Shown here: piece after piece, positions 33,893-50,395 of the stretch
Numbering within the stretch: the stretch's first letter is position 1
Layout of the letters: every line of letters begins with the position of its first letter
Origin: Parasporobacterium sp.
GTDB taxonomy: Bacteria; Bacillota; Clostridia; Lachnospirales; Lachnospiraceae
Direction: 5' to 3'
Assembly: GCA_017431485.1 (NCBI GenBank)
Contig: JAFRKZ010000087.1
Span: forward strand, 1 to 57,393
Length of the DNA: 57,393 bases
Notes under the pieces: model-generated
Database searches by the model: none
Seen by the model: only the letters and a program-made list of their open reading frames with translations
What the model was told of the DNA's origin: nothing
Translations under genes and position numbers: made by a program

Positions 33893-35623
33893 ATGGAAGT
33901 CTGGAAAATCTATTCGAAAAAGGCAGATTTTGCCGGTATATCAAAACAGTTCCAGATCAGCCCGCTTCTTGCCCGGATCCTCAGAAACCGGGATATTGAA
34001 GGACCGGAGCAGATCCGGAAATATCTTCATGCAGATGTATCAGATCTGTATGATCCGTTTCTGATGAAGGGAATGGAGGAGGGCGTCCGGATCACACATG
34101 ATACCATCCAAAACGGCGGACGCATCCGAATTATGGGAGATTATGATACCGACGGTGTCTGTGCCAGTTATATCCTGGAGCAGTTCCTGACCGCGGCGGG
34201 GGCTCATGCAGATGTCAGGCTGCCGGACCGTATGTCGGAAGGTTATGGTATGAGCACGGTGATGGCGGAAGAAGCAAATGAGAATAAGATCTCTCTGATC
34301 ATTACCTGCGATAACGGGATCTCTTCCTTCGATGCCGTAGAAGCCGCCAGGAAATACGGGATCGATGTGGTCGTGACAGATCATCATGAACCGACAGAAA
34401 ACCTGCCGAATGCCAATGTGATCATTGACGCCAAGCAGAAAGACTGCTCTTATCCCTTCCGGGAACTTTGTGGGGCAGGCGTTGCTTATAAATTCGTCCA
34501 GGCATACAACAGACTGTTTCAAACCGGTCTGGACGATCTGCTGGACGATCTGCTTCAGTATGCGGGGATCGCTACGATCGCGGATATCGTACCGTTAAAA
34601 GACGAGAACAGGATCTTTGCTTCCGAAGGGATCAGAAGACTTCGCAATACGAACAGCCCCGGCCTTCTTGCCCTGGCACAGGAACGCGGAATGGATATGT
34701 CCTTAATGGATTCCCGTTCGATCGCGTATATCCTGTCGCCCTGCATCAATTCTGCCGGAAGACTGAAAAATGCCGGACTGGCCTATGAACTTCTATGTGA
34801 AAAAGATCCGCAGAAAGCCCGGATGCTGGCAAAGGAACTGTCAGAGCTGAACGAGCAGAGAAAGACCATGACATCCGCCTGTGAAAGAGAAGCCATTGAG
34901 ATGATCCGGCAAAAAGAGCAGGCAGGACCGTCGCAGGACAGCATCCTGGTAGTGTTTCTTCCTATGGCCCATGAAAGTATCGCCGGCATCCTGGCCGGAA
35001 GGTTAAAGGATGAATACAACAGACCGGCGATCGTGATCACCAGGTCGCAGAATGCTCTGAAAGGTTCAGGGCGCTCCATAGATTCTTATAATCTGATCGA
35101 AGGCCTCAGAGAACATCCGGAATTATTTGAAAAATGCGGAGGACATGCCAAGGCCTGCGGTTTTACATTAAAGTCTGCAGGGACGGATGAAGAAACCGTC
35201 AGCCGGTTTGCAAAGTGCCTGAATGCCTCCTGCCGGCAGGATCTTGCTGATCTGGAGAGGGTCGTCTGGATCGATATGGCTCTTCCTTTTAAATACATTA
35301 ATGAGGTCTTCACAAAGGAACTGGATCTTCTGGAACCTTTCGGAACAGATAATGAAAAACCGGTTTTCGGACAGAATAAGGTCACAGTATTGAGAAAAAG
35401 TATCTTAGGCAGAAACAGGAACGTGCTGAAGCTGTCCCTGCAGGATGAAAGCGGTTTCGTAGCAGACGGCATCATGTTCGGCCAGGAAGATCATATCCGT
35501 CAGCAATATGAGAAACTGGAAGACGGCAGTCTCATCTCGATCCTTTATTATCCGATGATCAATGAATTCCGGGGGAACACTACCCCCCAGGCGGTCATCT
35601 CGGCATTCCGCATCATGGAATAA
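33893..35623 (+). CDS. recJ: single-stranded-DNA-specific exonuclease RecJ
   Basis: DHH-family motifs (GDYDTDGV, DNGIS, VTDHHEP) and DHHA1 GGHAKACG. Start set at ATG 33893. Confidence 0.9.
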   Translation: MEVWKIYSKKADFAGISKQFQISPLLARILRNRDIEGPEQIRKYLHADVSDLYDPFLMKGMEEGVRITHDTIQNGGRIRIMGDYDTDGVCASYILEQFLTAAGAHADVRLPDRMSEGYGMSTVMAEEANENKISLIITCDNGISSFDAVEAARKYGIDVVVTDHHEPTENLPNANVIIDAKQKDCSYPFRELCGAGVAYKFVQAYNRLFQTGLDDLLDDLLQYAGIATIADIVPLKDENRIFASEGIRRLRNTNSPGLLALAQERGMDMSLMDSRSIAYILSPCINSAGRLKNAGLAYELLCEKDPQKARMLAKELSELNEQRKTMTSACEREAIEMIRQKEQAGPSQDSILVVFLPMAHESIAGILAGRLKDEYNRPAIVITRSQNALKGSGRSIDSYNLIEGLREHPELFEKCGGHAKACGFTLKSAGTDEETVSRFAKCLNASCRQDLADLERVVWIDMALPFKYINEVFTKELDLLEPFGTDNEKPVFGQNKVTVLRKSILGRNRNVLKLSLQDESGFVADGIMFGQEDHIRQQYEKLEDGSLISILYYPMINEFRGNTTPQAVISAFRIME

Positions 35624-35687
35624 GAGCCTGTGTTAAAAGGAAATTCTTGAAAAAATGTATGGAAATTGTGCAGATTCTGTGATAAAT

Positions 35688-35716
35688 TTGACCTTTGGGT
35701 TCAAGGATAGTACAAT
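35688..35716 (+). promoter_or_regulatory. promoter TTGACC-17-TACAAT of the envelope operon
   Basis: Hexamers at 35688-35693 and 35711-35716, about 30 nt upstream of ATG 35748. Confidence 0.55.
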
Positions 35717-35747
35717 AACTTGAAAACATACACAGCAGGAAGTAGCT

Positions 35748-37256
35748 ATGCGTACCGGATCAGGTAAAAGATCTTCATATAACAGAACGACCGGAAGCAG
35801 GACTGCGAGGCTGTATTCCCGCAGGACTGCTAAAAAGATAAATAAAATATATCTGAACGAAGAGGCAAAGATCATTCGGACAGAAGAGTACTATGGTGAA
35901 TCAAGGACAGCAGCCCGCAGTTTCGGTGCCGATGAGTACAACGACTATTACGATGATCTTTCCAGAGACAGAAAGAGCGGAGCAAAAACAAAGATCTCGA
36001 CGATCATTATCACGGCTTCGCTTATTATTGTGGTCCTGGCTCTTGTGATCGCAGGACTGGCCCTCTTAAAGCCAAAGGACAATGTGGTCACGGATCTCGT
36101 AAAAGCTCCGAAGACGGAACCGGAGTCCGTTCCGGCATCTTCCCTGTATGGAGATTCCGCCGCTCCCGAAATCTTTGGCGTGATCCCGATCGTCGTTTAC
36201 GCCGGCAACTCGGTTGCCTATAAAGACGGCGTCTATCTGGAGGATGATAACGATCCTTCCCCGGTCCTGGAGATCGAGAACGAAGGAGTGGATCTTACCA
36301 CTCCCGGTATTTATCCGATCACTTATGTCGCCAGAGACGCGGACGGCAATGTTACCAGAGAGGTGACGACAGTGACGGTTCTTGCCGGCACGAACCTGAT
36401 CAGCCAGGAAGAGATCAATAAACTGGCGGATCTGGTGTTGGAAACGATCATTCCGGATGATACGATCTCCGATGAAATGAAATGCCTGAAAGTTTATGAG
36501 TATCTTCATGCCATCGGATATGTGGACGAGGTCCATTCAGAGGACTGGATGCAGAACGCTTACTGGATGCTGACAAAGAGGGAAGGAGACTGCTTCTGTT
36601 ATTACTCCGCTTCCAGGCTGCTCCTTTCCAGGCTCGGCTATGAAGTGATGGAGGTCCGGAACAACAACAACTATGTGCATTACTGGTGTCTGGTCAGTAT
36701 TGACGGCGGCGCGACCTGGTGGCATTTTGACCCCTGCTGCTGGAGCTGGGGGGAAGATGGGATCCTGTGCCTTGTCAGCGACAAATATCTGTCAGAGTTT
36801 ACCAGAAGACATATTACTTCGGACGGACGGCTGATCCACGCCTGGGATCTGGTCAATTATCCTTCTACACCTGAGGCGGACTTCTGGACAGATGAAGACC
36901 GTGAGGTGATCTATGAAGGCGGCCTGATCGATGTGGAAGCACAGTACGACCCGAATGACGAAAGATGGAACAACGATGGCTGGGAGTCCTATCAGGTACC
37001 GAATTACTGGGAAGCATCTGACTGGACGGAATACGACTACAATTATGATGACACTGCTTATGATCCGGCTGCGTATGAAGAGTCCTATGTCGGGGCTGAA
37101 GATATGGTTTCGGAAGATTATGATGTTCCGGCTGATCCCGGTTCCTATGAAGAAGCGGATCCTGCTCCCGGAGTGATCGAAGAGATCCCATATGAAGAAG
37201 AATATGTGGAACAGGTTTTTGAAGATACCGAAACCGGATTTGAAGGTGACAATTGA
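35748..37256 (+). CDS. membrane-anchored Ig-like (DUF5011-type) + transglutaminase-like cysteine peptidase-fold protein
   Basis: Arg-rich N-terminus plus TM. Ig-like GVDLTTPGIYPITYVARDADGNVTREVTTVTV. Cys/His/Asp contexts EGDCFCY, HYWCLV and WWHFDPC. Acidic, Tyr-rich tail. Confidence 0.75.
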   Translation: MRTGSGKRSSYNRTTGSRTARLYSRRTAKKINKIYLNEEAKIIRTEEYYGESRTAARSFGADEYNDYYDDLSRDRKSGAKTKISTIIITASLIIVVLALVIAGLALLKPKDNVVTDLVKAPKTEPESVPASSLYGDSAAPEIFGVIPIVVYAGNSVAYKDGVYLEDDNDPSPVLEIENEGVDLTTPGIYPITYVARDADGNVTREVTTVTVLAGTNLISQEEINKLADLVLETIIPDDTISDEMKCLKVYEYLHAIGYVDEVHSEDWMQNAYWMLTKREGDCFCYYSASRLLLSRLGYEVMEVRNNNNYVHYWCLVSIDGGATWWHFDPCCWSWGEDGILCLVSDKYLSEFTRRHITSDGRLIHAWDLVNYPSTPEADFWTDEDREVIYEGGLIDVEAQYDPNDERWNNDGWESYQVPNYWEASDWTEYDYNYDDTAYDPAAYEESYVGAEDMVSEDYDVPADPGSYEEADPAPGVIEEIPYEEEYVEQVFEDTETGFEGDN

Positions 37257-38446
37257 GTACGAGTGAGAACGCACAGCTGAATGAAATATACAGACAGAGG
37301 AAACTGTTCCGGAATGACAGAAGACGCACAATGAGATTTATCTCCGCGTTTGCTGTGATGCTGGTTTTGTTAGGCGCTGTGATCGCGGTGACAGGCCTCC
37401 TTTATATTGTTAAGAATTCTCCTGATCATGACCTGATCGTCCTGCGGGACAGAAAACCGCCGGTGGTTTCTGTTCATGACGCGGTTTCCGCAAACGGAAA
37501 GGTCTACAGTATAGAGGAGTTTGCAGACAGTATCAGCGATATTTCAGATGTCCGGATGAGCTATATCAAGGAACCGGATTTTGAAGCGGACGGCATCCAG
37601 GATATCGTCATACGTTTTACAGATGAAGCAGGCAATTATACAGATAAGAACCTGAAACTGGAGGTATATCATGATACCTCGGCACCGGTCATCTATGTGG
37701 ACGATGATATTTATGTTTTCTGGAACGATGCGATCTCTTATAAAAGCTTTGCCGAAGTGGAAGACGATTATGACGAAGATCTGGATCTTGAGATCGATAA
37801 CAGCGAAGTGGATGTGACGAAGATCGGGACCTATCCGGTAATTTACAGTGCGACGGACAGTGTGGGAAACACCACAAGCAAGACCGTCAATATTCATGTC
37901 ATGGAACCGGATTCAGATGAATATTACCTGATGAAGGCCAATGAACTGTGCGATATCATCATCTCTCAGATCACTTATGACGGTATGGACGATCTTCACA
38001 AAGTATGGGCAGTCTACAATTATGTCCGGGAGATCCCTTATGTTCTGACGGATTATACCAGAAATTATATCCGGGAAGGCTATAAGATGCTGAGTGAATA
38101 CCGCGGTGACTGTTACGGAAGCTATGCTTCTGTCAAACTTCTGCTGGACCGTCTGGGGATCATGAATATACCGATCCAGACCGATGAAGCCTATACCAGA
38201 CATTTCTGGAATATGGTCTCATTGGACGGCGGCAATACCTGGTATCATGTAGATGCCACCAACTGGACGGAATGGAGTCAGCGACCGAATATGTGCATGA
38301 TCAGCGATGGCCGGCTGGATGAGATCTCGGCACAGCACGGAGGGACTCATTACCATATCAAGTCTGATTATCCTGCGACCCCGTATAACAGCATGCCGGT
38401 ACCGGAGGATATTTCCGCACAGTACGGTGTGTATGACTGGAGCTGA
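37253..38446 (+). CDS. paralogous membrane-anchored Ig-like + transglutaminase-like protein
   Basis: Same layout as the upstream gene: DVTKIGTYPVIYSATDSVGNTTSKTVNIHV, then RGDCYGSY, HFWNMV and WYHVDAT. The start is uncertain: TTG 37253 overlapping the upstream stop, or ATG 37331. Confidence 0.7.
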   Translation: MSTSENAQLNEIYRQRKLFRNDRRRTMRFISAFAVMLVLLGAVIAVTGLLYIVKNSPDHDLIVLRDRKPPVVSVHDAVSANGKVYSIEEFADSISDISDVRMSYIKEPDFEADGIQDIVIRFTDEAGNYTDKNLKLEVYHDTSAPVIYVDDDIYVFWNDAISYKSFAEVEDDYDEDLDLEIDNSEVDVTKIGTYPVIYSATDSVGNTTSKTVNIHVMEPDSDEYYLMKANELCDIIISQITYDGMDDLHKVWAVYNYVREIPYVLTDYTRNYIREGYKMLSEYRGDCYGSYASVKLLLDRLGIMNIPIQTDEAYTRHFWNMVSLDGGNTWYHVDATNWTEWSQRPNMCMISDGRLDEISAQHGGTHYHIKSDYPATPYNSMPVPEDISAQYGVYDWS

Positions 38447-38484
38447 TCATGTGTTGACGCCTTTAGAAGGCTGGAGGAGCAGGA

Positions 38485-39216
38485 ATGGTAAATGGTAAGA
38501 AAGTACTTGGCGTGATCGGGGGCATGGGTCCCATTGCGACGTCTTTTTTTATGGAACTGGTGATCAAGATGACAGATGCTTCCACGGATCAGGATCATCT
38601 GGACATGATCATTTATAATATCCCGTCCATACCTGACCGAACATCTTACATTCTGGACCATACCAAGAAAAGTCCGCTGCCGGTCATTCTTAATATCGCG
38701 GCAAAGCTGGAAGAGCAGGGAGTAGAATTTCTTGCCATGCCCTGCTGCACAGCCCACTATTTCCAGGAGGAACTGGAACAGTCCCTCCACAAACCCTTTG
38801 TGAATATCATACGGGCAACGGTTCACTATCTGAAGGAACGGGGGATCACAAAGGTCGGCGTCATGGCAACAGACGGCACCATGAATACCGGACTGTTCCG
38901 CAAGGAACTGGAAGAAAACGGCATGCAGATCGTCTGTCCCTCTAAGGAGCGGCAGAAAGACGTTATGCATGTGATCTATCAGAATGTGAAGGCAAACCGT
39001 CCGGTGGAGATGGACCGGTTCCGGGCTGTCGGCGACGAACTGAAAGCCAACGGAGCGGAGGCGATCATCCTGGGATGTACGGAGCTGTCCCTGGTGAAGC
39101 GAGACTATGATATCGGACCGGGATATATCGACGCTATGGAGGTTCTTGCCCAGCAGTCCCTGATCTCATGCGGATCTGTATTGAAAGAAGAATATAAAGA
39201 GCTGATCACAGCTTGA
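38485..39216 (+). CDS. Asp/Glu-racemase-family amino-acid racemase (aspartate-racemase-like)
   Basis: GVIGGMGPIATSFF N-terminus and both catalytic Cys motifs, MPCCTAH and LGCTE. GGAGGAGCAGGA RBS. Confidence 0.85.
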   Translation: MVNGKKVLGVIGGMGPIATSFFMELVIKMTDASTDQDHLDMIIYNIPSIPDRTSYILDHTKKSPLPVILNIAAKLEEQGVEFLAMPCCTAHYFQEELEQSLHKPFVNIIRATVHYLKERGITKVGVMATDGTMNTGLFRKELEENGMQIVCPSKERQKDVMHVIYQNVKANRPVEMDRFRAVGDELKANGAEAIILGCTELSLVKRDYDIGPGYIDAMEVLAQQSLISCGSVLKEEYKELITA

Positions 39217-39233
39217 TCGATGGAGTGATTATC

Positions 39234-40751
39234 ATGCAGTATACAAATATTTTGCAGTATCTGGAAGAAACCGTTCTGAAGGTGCCGGACAAACCGGCAT
39301 TCTGCGCACAGGACAGCACACTGACGTTCCGTCAGACTTATGAGGCGTCCCGGGCAGTCGGTTCTTTTCTGTATCAGAAGGGCTACTATAAAAAACCGGT
39401 CGTTGTCTTTATGAAAAAGACACCGGAAGCGATCGCTGCCTATCTGGGCGTGATCTATGCCGGCTGTTTTTATGTGGCGTTGGATGAAGAGATGCCGAAG
39501 CACAGGATCGAACTGATCATCCAGACCGTGAAGGCAGGTATGGTCATCTGTGATGAGACCACAGGGGAGATGATCCGGGAATACGGCTTTGACGGGGAAG
39601 TCTGTCAGTACAGCCAGATCGTTCAGACAGGGATCGATGAAGAAGCGCTTGAAAAAGTGCGTGATGCCCAGACCGATATAGATCCTATTTACGCGGTCTT
39701 TACTTCAGGTTCCACAGGAGTGCCCAAAGGAGTGCTGGCCTGCCACCGGTCTGTGATCGATTATATTGAAAACCTGTCGGAAGTGCTTCAGTTTGATTCC
39801 GATACGGTATACGGAAACCAGGCGCCGTTCTATTTTGACGCCGCATTGAAGGAGATCGTGCCCACCATGAAATTCGGCGCCACGACTCATATTATCCCGA
39901 AATCCCTGTTCATGTTCCCGATCAAGCTGGTGGAATTCCTGAATGAACATAAGATCAACACCATCTGCTGGGCGGCATCAGCCCTGACGATCGTTTCCTC
40001 TTTCCGGACGTTTGAGAAGATCCGGCCGGAATATATCAAACGTGTTGTATTCGTGGGAGAAGTCTTTCCGATCAAACAGCTGAACATGTGGAAAGAAGTC
40101 CTGCCGGATGCTCTGTATGTCAATCTTTACGGACCGACAGAGACGACAGGGGTATGCTGTTATTATAAAGTGGACCGGGAATTTGCGCTGGACGAGACCC
40201 TTCCGGTAGGAAGACCCTTCCACAATACCTCCATTCTTCTTCTGAATGATGATCTTACACAGACTCCTTTCGGTGAGGTGGGTGAGATCTGCGTAAAGGG
40301 AACCTGCCTGACGCTCGGCTATTACAACAATCCGGAGAAGACCAGGGAAGCGTTTATCCAGAACCCTCTTAACGACATGTATCCGGAGACCATCTACAGG
40401 ACAGGAGATCTGGGAAGGTACAATGAGCGGGGAGAACTGTGTTATGTTTCCCGCAAGGACTATCAGATCAAACACATGGGACACCGTATTGAACTGGGCG
40501 AGATCGAAGTCGTTGTGAATATGCATAAAGGGATCCGGACAAATTGCTGCATATTTGATGACATTAAGAAGAAAATCGTGTTATACTATGTCGGCGATGC
40601 AACGAGGGCGGAAGTGGCGGAATTCACCAAGGAAAAACTTCCCAGATATATGTTCCCGAATGTGATTGTCCAATTGGAGAATATGCCCTATACTGCTAAC
40701 GGAAAGATCGACAGAGTCTCATTGAAAAATAAATATAACGAGGAAAAATAA
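39234..40751 (+). CDS. DltA-like stand-alone amino-acid adenylation enzyme (carrier-protein ligase)
   Basis: A-domain core motifs TSGSTGVPKG, NQAPFYFDAALKE, YGPTETTG, YRTGDLG, QIKHMGHRIELGEIE and NGKIDR. Start set at ATG 39234 (GGAGTG RBS). Confidence 0.85.
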   Translation: MQYTNILQYLEETVLKVPDKPAFCAQDSTLTFRQTYEASRAVGSFLYQKGYYKKPVVVFMKKTPEAIAAYLGVIYAGCFYVALDEEMPKHRIELIIQTVKAGMVICDETTGEMIREYGFDGEVCQYSQIVQTGIDEEALEKVRDAQTDIDPIYAVFTSGSTGVPKGVLACHRSVIDYIENLSEVLQFDSDTVYGNQAPFYFDAALKEIVPTMKFGATTHIIPKSLFMFPIKLVEFLNEHKINTICWAASALTIVSSFRTFEKIRPEYIKRVVFVGEVFPIKQLNMWKEVLPDALYVNLYGPTETTGVCCYYKVDREFALDETLPVGRPFHNTSILLLNDDLTQTPFGEVGEICVKGTCLTLGYYNNPEKTREAFIQNPLNDMYPETIYRTGDLGRYNERGELCYVSRKDYQIKHMGHRIELGEIEVVVNMHKGIRTNCCIFDDIKKKIVLYYVGDATRAEVAEFTKEKLPRYMFPNVIVQLENMPYTANGKIDRVSLKNKYNEEK

Positions 40752-40979
40752 ATGGAACAGTTATTAGAAATTCTTGAAGGATTACATCCGGAAGTGGACT
40801 TCGAACTTGCAGACGACCTGATCGACGGCAAGATCTTTGATTCTTTTGATATCGTTACCCTGGTGGCAGAGATCAACGCAGAATTCGATGTGGCGATCCC
40901 GGCAGAGGAACTGATCCCTGAAAACTTTAATTCTGCTGAAGCGATCTGGGAGCTGATCCAGAGACTGGACGAAGAATAA
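40752..40979 (+). CDS. DltC-like aminoacyl carrier protein
   Basis: 75 aa with the phosphopantetheine Ser in a DltC-like context, KIFDSFDIVTLV. Its ATG follows the upstream TAA directly. Confidence 0.8.
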   Translation: MEQLLEILEGLHPEVDFELADDLIDGKIFDSFDIVTLVAEINAEFDVAIPAEELIPENFNSAEAIWELIQRLDEE

Positions 40980-40982
40980 AGA

Positions 40983-42551
40983 ATGTCCTTTACATCAATT
41001 GATTTTCTTGCATTTTTCGGTATACTGATCATCCTGTACTATGCACTGCCTAAAAAGATACAGTGGATAGTACTTCTTGTTGCCAGTTATACTTTTTATA
41101 CACTTGCAGGCCTGAAATATATAGGCTTTATTCTGTTCACCACCATCACAACCTATCTCGTGACACGGCATATGGACGAGAATCTTCAGAGACAGGATCT
41201 GTATCTGAAGAAACATAAGGCTGAGATGTCCAAGGAAGAGAAAAAGGCATATAAAAAAGAGGTGAAATCCAGGAACCGGCTGTGGTTTGTGATCACGATC
41301 GTGGTGAATTTCGGGATCCTCTTTTTCTGCAAAGCATGTCTGGTGGATCCGCTGCACAGCATGAGCGGATCACCGGTCTTTTCCTTTCTTTCGGTAGGGC
41401 TGCCTTTTGGTATTTCCTTTTATATGTTCCAGTCCATGGGATATGTGATCGATGTATACCGGGGCAAGGCACAGGCGGAACGCAATTTCTTCCGGCTGGC
41501 GCTGTTCGTGTCCTTCTTCCCGCAGCTTGTACAGGGGCCCATCAGTAAATGGGAGCAGCTCAAAGATTCCCTGTTTTCGCCGCATGCATTTGACCGCAGA
41601 CAGGTAGCGTTCGGACTCCAGAGAGTCCTGTGGGGCTTTTTCAAAAAGCTGGTGATCGCAGACCGGATCGCGGTTGCGATCGGAACGCTGAAAGGAACAG
41701 AGTATACCGGCGTTTCCTTCTTCGTGCTGACGGTGTTTTATGCCGTGCAGATCTACGGCGATTTTACCGGTGGTATCGATATTGCGATCGGCGTAGGTGA
41801 GACGCTGGGTGTTAAGATGCCTGAAAACTTCATCCGGCCGTTCTTCTCCAAGAATATCGCGGAATACTGGCGCAGATGGCATATCTCCCTGAATGAATGG
41901 ATGAAGAGCTATATCTTCTATCCGATCACGGTCTCCGGTCCCATGCTGAAGCTGGCGCTGAAGACAAGGGCAAAACTGGGCCGGTTCGGTATGCGGATCC
42001 CGGTTTATATCGGCTCTTTGCTGACCTGGCTGGGAACAGGCGTTTGGCATGGATTCAATTTCCATTTTATCCTGTGGGGACTGATCAACTGTGTGGTGAT
42101 CGTGATCTCAGAAGAACTGAATCCTGCCTATGAAAGGTTTCATGATCGCTTTTCCTGGTCAAACAAAAGGGGCTATAACGTTTTCCAGATCATCCGGATG
42201 TTTGTCCTGATGAACCTGATCAGGGCAACCGACCTGTTCAATGATGTCGGCGATTATTTCCGGCGGATCGGATCCCTTGCATGGCAGTTCAATTTCCATG
42301 TACTGTGGGACGGAACGCTGATGAACCTCGGCCTTACCGCGGCGGATTATATCATCCTGATCTGCGGCATTATCATAATGTTCCTGGTGAGCTTTTTCAG
42401 CAGGGATAACGTGAGTTTTCGGGTGAAGTTCCAGAAGGTTCCGAGAGTACTTCGCTATGTACTGCTTTTCCTTTTGCTGCTGTCCGTGATCCTGTTCGGA
42501 AGTTACGGCATCGGCTATGATGCAAGCAGTTTTATTTACAACCAGTTCTGA
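40983..42551 (+). CDS. MBOAT-family O-acyltransferase (DltB/AlgI-like)
   Basis: 522 aa, polytopic. Conserved YWRRWHISLNEWMKSYIFYP block with the MBOAT His. Confidence 0.9.
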   Translation: MSFTSIDFLAFFGILIILYYALPKKIQWIVLLVASYTFYTLAGLKYIGFILFTTITTYLVTRHMDENLQRQDLYLKKHKAEMSKEEKKAYKKEVKSRNRLWFVITIVVNFGILFFCKACLVDPLHSMSGSPVFSFLSVGLPFGISFYMFQSMGYVIDVYRGKAQAERNFFRLALFVSFFPQLVQGPISKWEQLKDSLFSPHAFDRRQVAFGLQRVLWGFFKKLVIADRIAVAIGTLKGTEYTGVSFFVLTVFYAVQIYGDFTGGIDIAIGVGETLGVKMPENFIRPFFSKNIAEYWRRWHISLNEWMKSYIFYPITVSGPMLKLALKTRAKLGRFGMRIPVYIGSLLTWLGTGVWHGFNFHFILWGLINCVVIVISEELNPAYERFHDRFSWSNKRGYNVFQIIRMFVLMNLIRATDLFNDVGDYFRRIGSLAWQFNFHVLWDGTLMNLGLTAADYIILICGIIIMFLVSFFSRDNVSFRVKFQKVPRVLRYVLLFLLLLSVILFGSYGIGYDASSFIYNQF

Positions 42552-42559
42552 TACATTTT

Positions 42560-43636
42560 ATGAAAAAGAAACTGATCCTCATTATTGTCATAACGGTATT
42601 GGCGGCAGCCGGACTTCTGTTCCTGGTGCAGGGACTTTTAATGCCCAAATTTATGTCAGAGATCCCGGAAGGTGCCATGATCCAGGAGTATTATGAAAAT
42701 GCGGGCGGCAACGATGTGATCTTTATCAGTGACTGCGAAGTGTACGAGAATTTCTCTCCCGTCACGTTGTGGGAAGAGTACGGGATCACATCCTATATCA
42801 GAGGATCTGCCCAGCAGCTGATCTGGCAGTCTTATTACCTGATGGAAGAAACCTTCAAGTATGAAACGCCGGATATCATGGTCTTCAATGTCCTGGAAAT
42901 GAAATACAACACGCCTTCCGATACCGGTGCCTCCAGCCAGCGGGAAGCATATAACCGCATGACCCTGGATGGTATGCGCTGGTCATCCAGCAAATGGAAT
43001 TCCATCTATGCCTCCATGACAAAAGAGGAGAGATCCAAAGACGGCGTATGGAGTTATATTTTCCCGATCCTGCGCTACCATGACCGCTGGTCGGAATTGT
43101 CAGGGGAAGATTTCCGATATCTGTTTACCAGAGATCAGGTGACGGACAACGGATACCTGATGCAGGTCAAGGTCAATCCCGTCGGAGATGAGTATCCGGT
43201 GATCCCGCTTGTGGATTATTCCTTTGGGGATAATGCCTACTATTATCTTGATAAGATGGTCGAACTCTGTGAGGAGCATGGAACACAGCTGGTCCTTGTC
43301 AAGGCTCCGACTCTTTCTCCGATCTGGTATGATCAGTGGGAAGAGCAGATGGAACAGTATGCTCAGGAACACGGGCTGTTGTATTTTAATTTCCTGGAAA
43401 AACAGGATGAGATCGGGATCGACTGGAATACGGATACCTATGACCAGGGTCTGCATCTGAATGTTTACGGCGCCGAAAAGCTCTCCCGTTACTTTGGAAA
43501 GATCCTTTCGGAAGAACTGGGGGTTAAGGATCACAGAGGGGAAGAAGAGACCGCCCGGAAGTGGGAACAAAAATGTGAAACTTATATGAACCGCAAAGAA
43601 AGACTTGAAAAAGAACTGACAAACATAGTAGAATGA
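42560..43636 (+). CDS. membrane-anchored SGNH-like protein (DltD-position partner)
   Basis: N-terminal TM. Block I-like VIFISDCEVYE and block V-like DTYDQGLHLNVYGAEKL. The family assignment is tentative. Confidence 0.6.
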   Translation: MKKKLILIIVITVLAAAGLLFLVQGLLMPKFMSEIPEGAMIQEYYENAGGNDVIFISDCEVYENFSPVTLWEEYGITSYIRGSAQQLIWQSYYLMEETFKYETPDIMVFNVLEMKYNTPSDTGASSQREAYNRMTLDGMRWSSSKWNSIYASMTKEERSKDGVWSYIFPILRYHDRWSELSGEDFRYLFTRDQVTDNGYLMQVKVNPVGDEYPVIPLVDYSFGDNAYYYLDKMVELCEEHGTQLVLVKAPTLSPIWYDQWEEQMEQYAQEHGLLYFNFLEKQDEIGIDWNTDTYDQGLHLNVYGAEKLSRYFGKILSEELGVKDHRGEEETARKWEQKCETYMNRKERLEKELTNIVE

Positions 43637-43691
43637 CCATTGCGGTCTGCGGACCATATAACAGTAATAGATCCTGAAGGAGAGAATTAAT

Positions 43692-44267
43692 ATGAAAAAA
43701 ATGATTTGTTTACTGATCGCAGCGGTCCTGGCAGCAGGAATGCTGACTGCCTGCGATTCAGGAGATAGCAGCGCTAAAAAAGATGACCAGGCGACTACTG
43801 TCGCTGCTGCAGCTGCAGACACGACACCGGCGGCTGATGAGACTGCACAGGCCCAGGATGCACAGACGGATCGATTTACCTTTACGTATAAAGGTACTCC
43901 GATCACCATGAAGGCTGAAGCAGCTCCGATCTGCGAAGCTCTGGGTGACGCAAAGAGCTATACAGAGGAAACAAGCTGCGCATTTGACGGCCTGGATAAG
44001 AATTACACCTTTACCAGCTTTATCATGACGACCTATCCGGATGGCGACAAGGACAGAGTCAATTCCCTGACGCTCCTGGATGATACCGTTTCTACTGCGG
44101 ACAAGATCAGTATCGGAGACTCCAAGGAAAAAGTGGAAGAAGTCTACGGAGCCGACAGTTTTAACGGTGTCAACGCCTATATCCTGACGGAAGGAGATGC
44201 ACAGCTTACCGTGATCATCGACGGCGACAAAGTATCTTCCATCCAGTATACGGCAGTGTTTGAGTAA
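43692..44267 (+). CDS. lipoprotein, function unknown
   Basis: Signal peptide with lipobox LTAC, then an Ala/Thr/Asp-rich linker and a ~130-aa domain. GGAGAG RBS. Confidence 0.7.
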   Translation: MKKMICLLIAAVLAAGMLTACDSGDSSAKKDDQATTVAAAAADTTPAADETAQAQDAQTDRFTFTYKGTPITMKAEAAPICEALGDAKSYTEETSCAFDGLDKNYTFTSFIMTTYPDGDKDRVNSLTLLDDTVSTADKISIGDSKEKVEEVYGADSFNGVNAYILTEGDAQLTVIIDGDKVSSIQYTAVFE

Positions 44268-44293
44268 ACACATTTTTCAATTACGACAAGAAG

Positions 44294-44323
44294 GCCAGCA
44301 TGCAGATGTCATGCTGGCTTTTT
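44294..44323 (+). terminator. rho-independent terminator of the envelope operon
   Basis: GCCAGCATG-loop-CATGCTGGC followed by TTTTT. Confidence 0.85.
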
Positions 44324-44603
44324 CCTTGTTTTCGCAGTGTGCTCAATTTGAGGAGGGTAGACCCTCCTTGTTTTCACGGTGAGTCTAATATGAGGAGGGT
44401 TTACCCTTCTTGTTTTCGCGGTGCGCTCAATTTGAGGAGGGTAGACCCTTCTTGTTTTTGCGGTGTGTTTAATTTGAGAAGGGTGGCCCCTTCTTGTTTT
44501 TACGATGTCCCCGATTTGAGAAGGGTGTCCCCGACTTGTTTTTGCGATGTCCCCATTTTGAGGAGGGTAGACCCTTCTTGTTTTCAAGATGAGATTAATT
44601 TAA
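44318..44603. repeat. tandem array B: 7 units of a 42-nt hairpin repeat, core TTTGAGGAGGGT..ACCCTTCTTGTTTT
   Basis: Unit starts at 44347, 44389, 44431, 44473, 44515, 44557 and 44599, all exactly 42 nt apart. Each unit is an AGGAGGGT/ACCCTCCT-type hairpin plus a T run. Confidence 0.9.
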
Positions 44604-44604
44604 G

Positions 44605-44637
44605 AAGGGTATAGGCTCGGAAAGAGCCTATACCCTT
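44605..44637 (-). terminator. 14-bp hairpin terminator of the ABC-F/PHP/hydrolase operon (also the last repeat unit)
   Basis: AAGGGTATAGGCTC-ggaaa-GAGCCTATACCCTT, 7 nt downstream of the hydrolase stop. Confidence 0.7.
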
Positions 44638-44643
44638 ATGGTT

Positions 44644-45867
44644 TTATAGTCCATCTGTGATATTTGGATCGATCTTAAATCCATCGAAATCATCGAGAGG
44701 ATGAAATTCTTCCTCCGGCGGGGTTTTCTGTGAAGCAGGGGTTGATCCTTCAGAGTCAGAAGAAGCTGAACTTTCTTCGGAACCGGCCCCGGAGATCACT
44801 GCTTCGATGTCGGCAAAGTCGATCATCTCCACCTTCGGATGGGCATCCTTGTCGATATATTCTTCCAGGTTCAGTTTTTCATCCCGGACCATTGGTCTGT
44901 CGATCTCCGGATCCACAAAATCCTCCAGGACAATGTGTTTCGGAGTGGCGGCGGCTTTTTCCGGAACGTCCGGGATCGCTGCCAGGCAGGATTCAACCTG
45001 TTCAAGGAGATCCTGCCAGATCTTTTCCCTGCAGAAATCCTGAAACAGTTCATGGCGCTGTCCCGGATAAATGATGTATCCCACATCTGTATATCCATTA
45101 TCAGAAAAGAGGTGGACTGTCTTCAGAACACCGTTTTTGCCTGCAGCACAGGAATCTTCTTCTCCCCAGAACAGACGGATGGGAAGCCCAGTGTGTTTTT
45201 TGATCCAGCTTCCTTTTGTATAGGTGCGGTTCATGAGATCCAGGATGGTCTTGAAACCGTTTATGGTATAGATATATCCGCATTTCGGGTTGATCTCATA
45301 TTTCAGGACACTGTCCCGGTCAGAAGACAGCCAGGCGAATTCGGATCCTTCCCTGGCAAATGGCCTGTAGTAAGATCCCATGATCAGATAATTGAGCAGG
45401 GAAGAACGATGATATTCCCCGCGCATAGCCATCAGCACCATCGTCAGCAGGTCAGCAGCAGGACGAAGCGGTTTGTCCGCCGGCATGCCGCAGAGAAACA
45501 GTCCGTCAATATAGTTGTCGTATTTTTTGATATAGACCGTGGCAAGAAGCGCTCCGATCCCATGTCCGAACAAAAAGCAGGGAATATGGGGAAAATGATC
45601 TTTGATATATTGCGTGATATCGTGAACGTCGCCAACCAGTCTGGAAACAGCGTTATCCCCGAAAAAACCAAGTTCTGTTTCCCGGGCAGTATTGATCCCG
45701 TGGCCTCTCAGGTCGCTGGTAACGACTGCGAAACCATGTTCCGCAAGGAAATGAGCAAATTCACGGTATCTTCCCTGATATTCGGCCATCCCGTGAAGGA
45801 TATGAAAGACTGCCCTGACTTCGCCGTCAGGCATATAAATGATCGCGTTTTTCGTTAATTCAGACAT
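44644..45867 (-). CDS. alpha/beta-hydrolase-fold protein (lysophospholipase/MGL-like) with Gly at the nucleophile position and an acidic C-terminal extension
   Basis: HGMAEYQGRY..SDLRGHG entry motifs of the Hydrolase_4 type. The elbow reads GHGIG instead of GHSxG. About 120 aa of acidic tail. Confidence 0.75.
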   Translation of the reverse strand: MSELTKNAIIYMPDGEVRAVFHILHGMAEYQGRYREFAHFLAEHGFAVVTSDLRGHGINTARETELGFFGDNAVSRLVGDVHDITQYIKDHFPHIPCFLFGHGIGALLATVYIKKYDNYIDGLFLCGMPADKPLRPAADLLTMVLMAMRGEYHRSSLLNYLIMGSYYRPFAREGSEFAWLSSDRDSVLKYEINPKCGYIYTINGFKTILDLMNRTYTKGSWIKKHTGLPIRLFWGEEDSCAAGKNGVLKTVHLFSDNGYTDVGYIIYPGQRHELFQDFCREKIWQDLLEQVESCLAAIPDVPEKAAATPKHIVLEDFVDPEIDRPMVRDEKLNLEEYIDKDAHPKVEMIDFADIEAVISGAGSEESSASSDSEGSTPASQKTPPEEEFHPLDDFDGFKIDPNITDGL

Positions 45868-49231: not shown

Positions 49232-50395
49232 ATGCCTGAAAAATATCAGTATTACAGATTGTGGGCGGATGTGGATCTGAATGCCATCCGCTCTAATATT
49301 TTGAAAGTACAGAAAAATCTCTCGGAACATGTCAGGACCTGCGCTGTCGTCAAAGCAGACGGATACGGGCACGGGGCCGTACAGGTCGCGGAAGCAGTAT
49401 CGGATCTGGTGGATTTTTATGCTGTGGCGACGATCGAGGAAGGACTGGAGCTGAGGGAACATCAGATCTGGAAGCCTGTTCTCGTCCTGGGATATGTCCA
49501 TCCTTCCATGTATGAGTCAGCCATTATGAACGGGATCCGCCTGACGGTCTATGATCTTTCGATCGCCAAAGGTCTGTCGGCTGCTCATGAACGGCTTATT
49601 TCCCAGGCAGGAAGCGAGCAGGTGAAGGATGCGCCAATCCATATCAAAGTGGATACCGGCATGAGCAGGATCGGCTTTTTCCCGTCCAGGGAATCTGTAC
49701 AGGTCCTGAAAGAGATCGCCTCCCTGCCCGGGATCCGGATGGAAGGGATCTTTACGCATTTTGCCAATGCAGATGACGAAACGACGGAACGGGCACTTGA
49801 TCAGCTGGATGTGTTCAGACGGTTCCTGTCTGAACTGGAGGCGGAGGGACTTCATTTCCCGGTCAGACACTGTGCGAACAGCGCTGCCGCAACCTGTCTT
49901 CAGGAGGCGCAGCTGGACATGGTGCGGCTTGGGATCTCCATGTACGGTCTTTATCCTTCCTGCTATGTCAGGCAGATCCCGCTGGAGCCTGCGATGTCCC
50001 TCAGAAGCCATGTGATCATGGTGAAAAAGATCCCGGCAGGAACTCCTGTCGGATACGGGAGCACCTGGACGGCTCCGGAAGAAAGCGTGATCGCGACCAT
50101 ACCGACCGGCTATGCGGACGGTTATAACAGAGGCTTGTCCAATAAAGGCTATGTACTGATAGGAGGAGCCAAATATCCTGTCGTCGGAAGAGTCTGCATG
50201 GACCAGATGATGGTTGATGTGACGAACCCCCTGGAAGGAAAGGGCGGGGAAGTCCGCGAAGGCGATGAGGTCATCCTGGTGGGACGATCCGGGGATCTGT
50301 ACATCACAGCGGAGGAGATCTCTGAACTTGCAGGCTCCTTTAATTATGAGTTTGTCTGCGGTATTTCGAAGCGGGTACCGCGTATCTATCACTGA
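49232..50395 (+). CDS. alr: alanine racemase
   Basis: 387 aa. PLP-Lys context AVVKADGYGHG and the C-terminal catalytic Tyr region. It starts 15 nt after rex. Confidence 0.92.
   Translation: MPEKYQYYRLWADVDLNAIRSNILKVQKNLSEHVRTCAVVKADGYGHGAVQVAEAVSDLVDFYAVATIEEGLELREHQIWKPVLVLGYVHPSMYESAIMNGIRLTVYDLSIAKGLSAAHERLISQAGSEQVKDAPIHIKVDTGMSRIGFFPSRESVQVLKEIASLPGIRMEGIFTHFANADDETTERALDQLDVFRRFLSELEAEGLHFPVRHCANSAAATCLQEAQLDMVRLGISMYGLYPSCYVRQIPLEPAMSLRSHVIMVKKIPAGTPVGYGSTWTAPEESVIATIPTGYADGYNRGLSNKGYVLIGGAKYPVVGRVCMDQMMVDVTNPLEGKGGEVREGDEVILVGRSGDLYITAEEISELAGSFNYEFVCGISKRVPRIYH

Follow-up and report, generated by a model that had tools for sequence, protein, structure and literature searches.

The DNA analysed here, referred to as the window, is a stretch of 57,393 nucleotides from Parasporobacterium sp. 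(contig positions 1-57,393), and all coordinates are given in its numbering. It carries a gene for a stand-alone adenylation enzyme of the nonribosomal peptide synthetase (NRPS) type, called here the A enzyme, in a cassette with genes for an amino acid racemase, a small carrier protein, an MBOAT (membrane-bound O-acyltransferase) and a membrane-anchored SGNH-fold protein. An original prediction, made from the sequence of the window, described the A enzyme as DltA-like with a substrate pocket that is not of the D-Ala type. The comparisons reported below are in line with this description and suggest that the enzyme probably activates an acidic D-amino acid. The gene and the residues assigned to the pocket and active site are the following:

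39234-40751, plus strand: stand-alone NRPS-type adenylation enzyme of 505 aa, assigned by PF00501, TIGR01733 and the fold of its AlphaFold2 (AF2) model
39837-39851, plus strand: specificity-code residues D202 (position 235), A203 (236) and K206 (239) of the A4 motif, from the alignment; invariant in 120 homologues and 80 loci
39966-39968, plus strand: C245 (code position 278), from the alignment; invariant in the family
40047-40055, plus strand: V272 (code position 299) and V274 (301, the position of the DltA Cys), from the alignment
40125-40154, plus strand: L298 (code position 322), the YGPTE A5 motif, G306 (330) and V307 (331), from the alignment, phmmer and the literature on Val301 of Bacillus cereus DltA
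40704-40706, plus strand: K491, the catalytic lysine of the A10 motif (K517 in PheA), from the alignment and the motif

The A enzyme was compared with its 120 best protein matches (64-99% identity) and its gene with a set of the 80 best loci, each from a different GTDB species, out of at least 581 species detected in a scan of one genome per species. As a background, 217 adenylation domains were drawn from 39 unrelated multi-module NRPS sequences. Query and 120 homologues were aligned using MAFFT with the PDB sequences of PheA (1AMU), B. subtilis DltA (3E7W, BsDltA) and B. cereus DltA (3FCC, BcDltA). Domains were assigned with Pfam and NCBIfam profiles, and folds were compared using AF2 models and Foldseek. 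The top 150 matches in a protein-representative search with the A enzyme consisted entirely of giant multi-module NRPS, which outrank single-domain relatives by their summed scores, so that the boundaries of the family were not delimited by this search.

The mechanical open reading frame (ORF) of the A gene runs from 39213 to 40751 and starts at a TTG that overlaps the end of the racemase gene. The ATG at 39234 is the likely start and is preferred over this TTG because it has a GGAG 8 nt upstream and because its product of 505 aa fits the 503-507 aa of nearly all homologues. At least one database entry, of 512 aa (P0001), likewise starts at the TTG overlapping the racemase stop codon. The A enzyme passed the generic adenylation-domain model TIGR01733 (328.8 bits, cut-off 317.4), whereas its score on the DltA equivalog model TIGR01734 was far below the cut-off (268.2 against 559.85 bits). 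The core motifs TSGSTGVPKG (A3), FD (A4), YGPTE (A5), YRTGD (A7), KDYQIKHMGHRIELGEIE (A8) and NGKIDR (A10) were all seen. The AF2 model (predicted local distance difference test, pLDDT, 83) had PheA 1AMU as its best fold match, with a template modelling (TM) score of 0.85, and matched DltA with TM scores of 0.80-0.82. Because the model superposes on both, transfer of the specificity code from the PheA and DltA structures is legitimate.

The original prediction had read the A4 motif as FYFDAALKEI and the motif before A5 as VVFVGEVF; both were found exactly where it had placed them, in peptides that read APFYFDAALKEIVP and KRVVFVGEVFPIK. Numbered from the Met at 39234, D202 is encoded at 39837-39839 (gac), A203 at 39840-39842, K206 at 39849-39851 (aag) and V274 at 40053-40055 (gtg), the last followed by G275 and E276. 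The MAFFT alignment had zero gaps around the A4 motif and the xxFxGE strand. In it D202, A203, K206 and V274 correspond to D235, A236, W239 and A301 of PheA, in agreement with the predicted mapping, to D197, L198, M201 and C269 of BcDltA, and to D196, L197, M200 and C268 of BsDltA. Lys206 and Val274 fall on pocket positions, and the full code reads DAKCVVLGVK. Towards the end of the code, MAFFT placed a one-residue gap in PheA before Ile330, which would equate 330/331 with V307/C308. This register was rejected in favour of the one without a gap (G306/V307), since BcDltA Val301, which without a gap is equivalent to PheA Ile330, is reported to contact the amino group of the substrate and since NRPS positions 330/331 align with G306/V307 in phmmer. 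The ambiguity leaves the assignments of K206 and V274 untouched.

Two published papers on DltA describe the D-Ala methyl group as pointing into a cavity formed by Leu198, Met201 and Cys269 of BcDltA, the Cys being the selector of the enantiomer. All three of these residues are changed in the query (Leu to Ala203, Met to Lys206 and Cys to Val274). The B. subtilis motifs quoted in the original prediction, FSFDLSVM and FMFCGE, agree with the 3E7W sequence. The selecting role that it assigned to the Cys is supported by the literature, although the number 269 belongs to the B. cereus enzyme and the B. subtilis residue is Cys268.

The residues D-A-K-C at 235/236/239/278 were invariant in 120/120 homologues and in 80/80 species-level loci. 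Lys at position 239 was found in 4 of the 217 background domains (1.8%), and two of these four have D[GS]KDLGVV[DN] codes, a pattern of the Glu type. As judged from these alignments, the conservation of K206 exceeds chance. No other code position in the 80 loci is Asp or Glu, and the charge of Lys206 should therefore be uncompensated within the pocket. Position 301, on the other hand, was Gly in 55 of the 80 loci, Ala in 23 and Val in 2, the Val being that of the query's own clade, and Cys in none; the predominant residues at this position in the NRPS background are Gly and Ala, and Cys occurs in 3 of the 217 domains. The replacement of the DltA Cys by Val thus holds for this sequence, yet Val is no conserved determinant, since the family has Gly, Ala or Val here as ordinary NRPS adenylation domains do. 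In the same way, the Cys that had been called lost is absent from all 80 loci and is better described as a DltA speciality foreign to this lineage. Position 299 is Val in the query clade and Ala in the rest of the family, and positions 299/301/307 co-vary by clade as A/G/M, A/A/I and V/V/V (query clade) while D-A-K-C stays fixed. The pocket of the query clade should be the smallest in the family, which could mean a slightly different substrate.

The Glu-specific code of SrfA-A module 1 is DAKDLGVVDK, and the code for Asp is DLTKVGHIGK. The likeness to the Glu code that had been pointed out holds for D235, A236 and K239 (and K517), whereas 278, 299, 301, 322, 330 and 331 are C, V, V, L, G and V in the query (C, V/A, V/A/G, L, G and V/I/M across the family). 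The A enzyme therefore shares with Glu-activating NRPS domains the basic residue at 239, which in those domains pairs with an anionic side chain, and differs from them in these other code positions, in standing alone without condensation partners and in the D-enantiomer implied by its neighbourhood.

The genes next to the A gene with which this neighbourhood is concerned encode the racemase and the predicted acyl-transfer proteins:

38485-39216, plus strand: aspartate-type amino acid racemase of 243 aa, independent of pyridoxal 5'-phosphate (PLP), assigned by PF01177, TIGR00035 and a match to 1JFL
40752-40979, plus strand: DltC-like carrier protein of 75 aa with a predicted phosphopantetheine site at Ser31 (40842-40844) in a D-S-F motif, assigned by PF00550
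40983-42551, plus strand: MBOAT of 522 aa with a DltB-like core and His300 in WHISL (41880-41882), assigned by PF03062
42531-42548, plus strand: C-terminal FIYNQF acyl-shuttle motif of the MBOAT (FxYxxF) with Tyr519, the protein ending in ...SSFIYNQF, assigned by motif
42560-43636, plus strand: membrane-anchored SGNH-fold protein of 358 aa with Cys59 at 42734-42736, assigned by a weak PF13472 match, the AF2 model and Foldseek

The racemase gene ends 18 nt upstream of the A start codon and lies directly upstream of the A gene in about 70 of the 80 loci. Its product scored 155 bits on PF01177 and 226 bits on TIGR00035. The best PDB match was the aspartate racemase of Pyrococcus horikoshii (PhAspR, 1JFL; E = 3e-51), against E = 1.7e-8 for a MurI-type glutamate racemase, and the score on the glutamate racemase model TIGR00067 was 31 bits (cut-off 147). 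Thus, the presence of a racemase beside the A gene was as originally described, but "Asp/Glu-type" was too broad, since the closest characterised relative is an aspartate and not a glutamate racemase; for this reason D-Asp is favoured over D-Glu as the substrate. The catalytic pair Cys87 and Cys198, together with Arg52 and Lys169 (Arg48 and Lys164 of PhAspR), was invariant in 120 racemase homologues. The query racemase has its fold, the two-Cys mechanism and counterparts of Arg48 and Lys164 in common with PhAspR (1JFL/2DX7) and BwCuyB, and differs from them in being of only moderate identity and in its genomic role, which would be the supply of a building block and not catabolism.

The racemase also passed the model of the cysteate racemase CuyB, a member of the same family (NF052483; 220 bits, cut-off 190). 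This match was rejected as a specific pointer to D-cysteate, since the authentic aspartate racemase 1JFL passes the same model with a higher score (248 bits) and, in the window and the related loci examined, no CuyA sulfo-lyase was found near the cassette and no sulfonate-related gene within it. Automated annotation by the NCBIfam CuyB equivalog may mislabel aspartate-type racemases as cysteate racemases.

The carrier protein scored 30.5 bits on the DltC model NF003464 (cut-off 68), and its DSF motif was invariant in 73 loci. The MBOAT scored 139 bits on the DltB model TIGR04091 (cut-off 375) and had DltB 6BUG as its best PDB match (E = 2.5e-21). FxYxxF was the terminal motif in 66/66 complete MBOAT orthologues, and no small ORF ending in FxYxxF, as a candidate DltX, was found within 35000-45000. 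In the Dlt system DltB hands D-Ala to the Tyr in the FxYxxF motif of the microprotein DltX, while other bacterial MBOAT-SGNH systems have FxYxxF fused to the MBOAT at its C-terminus, use acyl-CoA and work without a carrier protein (PMC12148441). Judged from the predicted proteins, a carrier-linked MBOAT with a fused shuttle contradicts the published rule that MBOAT-SGNH systems other than Dlt lack a carrier.

Homologues of the SGNH-fold protein are named 'SGNH/GDSL hydrolase family protein' at NCBI. Foldseek matched its AF2 model (pLDDT 83, with insertions) to GDSL hydrolases, TesA and PatB and weakly to DltD; a search of PDB sequences gave no match, and no DltD Pfam or NCBIfam model was matched. 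D58, C59, E60, D295 and H299 were invariant, block I reading S/G-D-C-E and D295/H299 forming a block-V-like motif. In the model a strand at 53-56 is followed by a helix from 59, and this strand-helix pattern, not a superposition, places Cys59 at the position of the SGNH nucleophile, where SGNH enzymes have Ser. With an invariant Cys in this place, the acyl-enzyme intermediate may be a thioester.

The remaining elements of the cassette, and one downstream gene that bears on the supply of D-Ala, are listed below:

35688-35716: promoter-like site before tg1
35748-37256, plus strand: tg1, a membrane-anchored surface protein that carries a Bact_surface_Ig-like domain and is paralogous to tg2, probably the first gene of the operon, assigned by Pfam; present only in some related loci
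37253-38446, plus strand: tg2, a membrane-anchored surface protein with an N-terminal transmembrane segment, Ig-like domains and a transglutaminase-like (papain-fold) core, assigned by PF16403 and PF01841
43692-44267, plus strand: lipoprotein of 191 aa with a signal peptide ending in LTAC, syntenic in most loci
44289-44323, plus strand: terminator-like hairpin closing the operon, with a 14-bp stem and a T-run
49232-50395: separate PLP-dependent alanine racemase, beside a Rex-like regulator about 8.5 kb downstream

The order tg2, racemase, A enzyme, carrier, MBOAT, SGNH-like protein, lipoprotein was strongly kept across the 80 best loci, the flanks being different; the run from the A gene through the carrier to the MBOAT was seen in the window and in most of these loci. 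In most of the 80 loci the gene immediately upstream of the racemase or A gene is a tg2 orthologue, and tg2 is therefore probably a functional part of the system. Its candidate Cys287, His317 and Asp334 were placed by motif only (GDCYG, HFWN and HVD). The lipoprotein had no family match in the Pfam and NCBIfam scans, and no condensation, thioesterase or reductase domain was found in any of the 80 loci. In the window the cassette is surrounded by housekeeping genes (pheST, secDF, recJ, an ABC-F gene, rex and alr). The separate alanine racemase at 49232-50395 makes D-Ala supply independent of the racemase of the cassette.

Relatives of the A enzyme or its cassette were detected in at least 581 species of Clostridia, in Lachnospiraceae, Oscillospiraceae, Faecousia, Agathobacter, Roseburia, Acetatifactor and relatives. 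Among the matches listed, metagenome-assembled genomes of Anaerotignum and Parasporobacterium were closest (83% identity), and Cuneatibacter sp. NSJ-177 is an example of an isolate that has the cassette. A search of the literature found no description of a cassette with a DltA-like enzyme, an aspartate racemase and an MBOAT, although such absence is not proof, and the lipocone paper of Aravind mentions MBOAT-SGNH contexts without this cassette among them. The cassette is thus widespread in gut Clostridia and apparently undescribed.

From the residue mapping, conservation, synteny, motifs and fold assignments given above we infer a substrate, an order of transfer with its intermediates, and an acceptor. 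We put at about an even chance the proposal that the A enzyme is the activating enzyme of a Dlt-like pathway of envelope acylation that carries an acidic D-amino acid, D-Asp being the most probable, and not D-Ala; that the cargo is an acidic D-amino acid of one kind or another is a good deal more probable. The racemase would convert L-Asp to the D-enantiomer. In the pocket of the A enzyme, Asp202 would hold the alpha-amino group and Lys206, at the floor, the anionic side chain. The enzyme would then form the aminoacyl-AMP and load the phosphopantetheine on Ser31 of the carrier. As an adenylating enzyme and a carrier are encoded beside the MBOAT, the donor should be an aminoacyl-S-carrier. The MBOAT would move the aminoacyl group across the membrane through the His300 funnel onto its own Tyr519 in FxYxxF, and since this shuttle motif is fused to its C-terminus DltX would not be needed. 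Cys59 of the extracytoplasmic SGNH-fold protein would probably take the aminoacyl group from the shuttle and transfer it to a hydroxyl of an envelope polymer, forming an ester.

The cassette resembles Dlt at its front end and PatA/PatB or AlgI/AlgX at its back end. With Dlt (DltA/DltC/DltB/DltX/DltD) it shares a stand-alone adenylating enzyme, a small carrier with DSF, an MBOAT nearest to DltB, an extracytoplasmic SGNH-fold transferase and the D-enantiomer, implied here by the linked racemase. It differs from Dlt in the pocket residues (A/K/V instead of L/M/C of DltA), in that all four NCBIfam/Pfam Dlt models were failed or unmatched, in having FxYxxF fused to the MBOAT and no DltX, in a Cys instead of Ser at the predicted position of the SGNH nucleophile, and in the addition of its own aspartate-type racemase, a transglutaminase-like protein and a lipoprotein. 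A re-tuned DltA-type enzyme that serves envelope modification together with a carrier has its closest precedent in AlmE/AlmF/AlmG of Vibrio cholerae, where the DltA-like enzyme is reportedly adapted to glycine for lipid A modification; its glycine cargo, its lipid A target, its Gram-negative host and AlmG, which does not belong to the MBOATs, set it apart from the present cassette. With the PatA/PatB and AlgI/AlgJ/AlgX acetylation systems the cassette has in common an MBOAT of about 520 aa with extra C-terminal helices and a terminal FxYxxF, and a separate SGNH-fold partner. Those systems, however, use acetyl-CoA and no carrier (PMC12148441), whereas this cassette encodes an adenylating enzyme and a carrier. 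PatA/PatB-type systems also have a Ser nucleophile at the position where, by the strand-helix pattern, the invariant Cys59 is found here.

Several observations weigh against D-Asp as the cargo. Outside D-A-K the code matches neither the Asp nor the Glu code. The small residues in the pocket of most members (Ala236, Ala299 and Gly/Ala301) suggest that it may reach deeper than a D-Asp side chain requires, which would leave room for D-Glu or a longer anion. Where PhAspR has Asn83 the racemase clade has a hydrophobic residue or Cys, and in place of Thr125 it has Asp; the TIGR00035 score of 226 bits compares with 378 bits for PhAspR; because of this divergence the specificity of the racemase is not certain. 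In addition, a few loci (L003, L010 and L024) have neither racemase nor carrier in the cassette, the A gene being followed directly by the MBOAT gene. A search of the L003 flanks for a racemase or transaminase that could stand in gave only housekeeping genes (two D-Ala-D-Ala carboxypeptidases, an aspartokinase and others). The same pathway could carry D-Glu, whose gamma-carboxylate would be paired with Lys206 in the manner of Glu-activating NRPS domains. The D-A-K residues are the first three of the Glu code, the only background Lys239 domains with a recognisable code were Glu-like, and small residues line the pocket in most of the family; nevertheless we consider D-Glu rather unlikely, since the racemase is of the aspartate type by both the PDB match and the TIGR00067 score, positions 278, 299, 330 and 331 are unlike the Glu code, and a dedicated racemase would presumably be redundant in cells that already make D-Glu for peptidoglycan. 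Only a small chance is given to another anionic D-amino acid, such as D-cysteate, D-cysteine sulfinate or a 3-substituted D-Asp, supplied by a CuyB-like cysteate racemase. A sulfonate would also pair with Lys206, and the racemase, of the same family as CuyB, passes the CuyB model, but that model does not discriminate between the two activities and neither CuyA nor a sulfonate-related gene accompanies the cassette.

A cargo without a charged side chain has to be weighed as well. If Lys206 were structural or faced away from the substrate, the cassette could be a divergent dlt operon that still loads D-Ala, D-Ser or a similar small neutral D-amino acid. The Dlt-like logic of the cassette, which combines an A enzyme with a small carrier like DltC and an MBOAT like DltB, is consistent with such a cargo, and Val272, Val274 and Val307 shrink the pocket in the query clade. 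This is nevertheless unlikely, as all three residues of the D-Ala methyl cavity are changed, the DltA, DltB and DltC equivalog scores are all far under their cut-offs, the racemase of the operon is of a non-alanine type with the PLP-dependent alanine racemase encoded separately, and an uncompensated, invariant lysine at the pocket floor is hard to square with a hydrophobic methyl group. Least of all do we expect a role outside the envelope, in which the A enzyme and carrier feed a small secondary-metabolite or lipid pathway, or in which an L-enantiomer is activated and the racemase serves otherwise. The pass on the generic NRPS adenylation model and the structural closeness to PheA agree with this. 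Against it stand the absence of condensation, thioesterase and reductase domains from the 80 loci, the setting of the cassette among housekeeping genes, and the identity of the invariant partners, namely the MBOAT with its shuttle motif, the SGNH-fold protein anchored in the membrane, the lipoprotein and the Ig/transglutaminase-like surface protein.

In the textbook account, Gram-positive bacteria use D-alanylation by Dlt to adjust their surface charge, their resistance to antimicrobial peptides and host signalling. Loading of an acidic D-amino acid, if true, would be a new envelope modification with a different effect on charge, a zwitterionic rather than cationic counterpart of D-alanylation, and a possible source of microbial D-Asp. 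It would also provide a natural example of three pocket swaps (L to A, M to K and C to G/A/V) that re-tune a DltA-like enzyme. In the published view, carrier-dependent acylation by an MBOAT is peculiar to Dlt and requires DltX, other MBOAT-SGNH systems being acyl-CoA-based (PMC12148441); on paper, the cassette breaks both rules, that of a carrier only in Dlt and that of the need for DltX. Among the hosts are commensal Clostridia that rank with the most abundant in the human and ruminant gut. We tentatively extend the proposal, at a probability short of even, to hundreds of gut and rumen species of Clostridia (Lachnospiraceae, Oscillospiraceae, Agathobacter, Roseburia and Faecousia), which would put ester-linked D-Asp or another acidic D-amino acid on an envelope polymer by an undescribed route, with an aminoacyl-carrier donor, a self-shuttling MBOAT without DltX and an SGNH transferase with a Cys nucleophile. 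In this reading the linked transglutaminase-like surface protein might further process or cross-link the aminoacylated polymer.

A tandem array occupies 44325-44611, between the terminator of the operon and a convergent alpha/beta-hydrolase gene. It consists of about 6.4 copies of a 42-nt unit (79% matches), each unit with a short hairpin followed by T-runs in it, and it yields spurious repeat ORFs on both strands.

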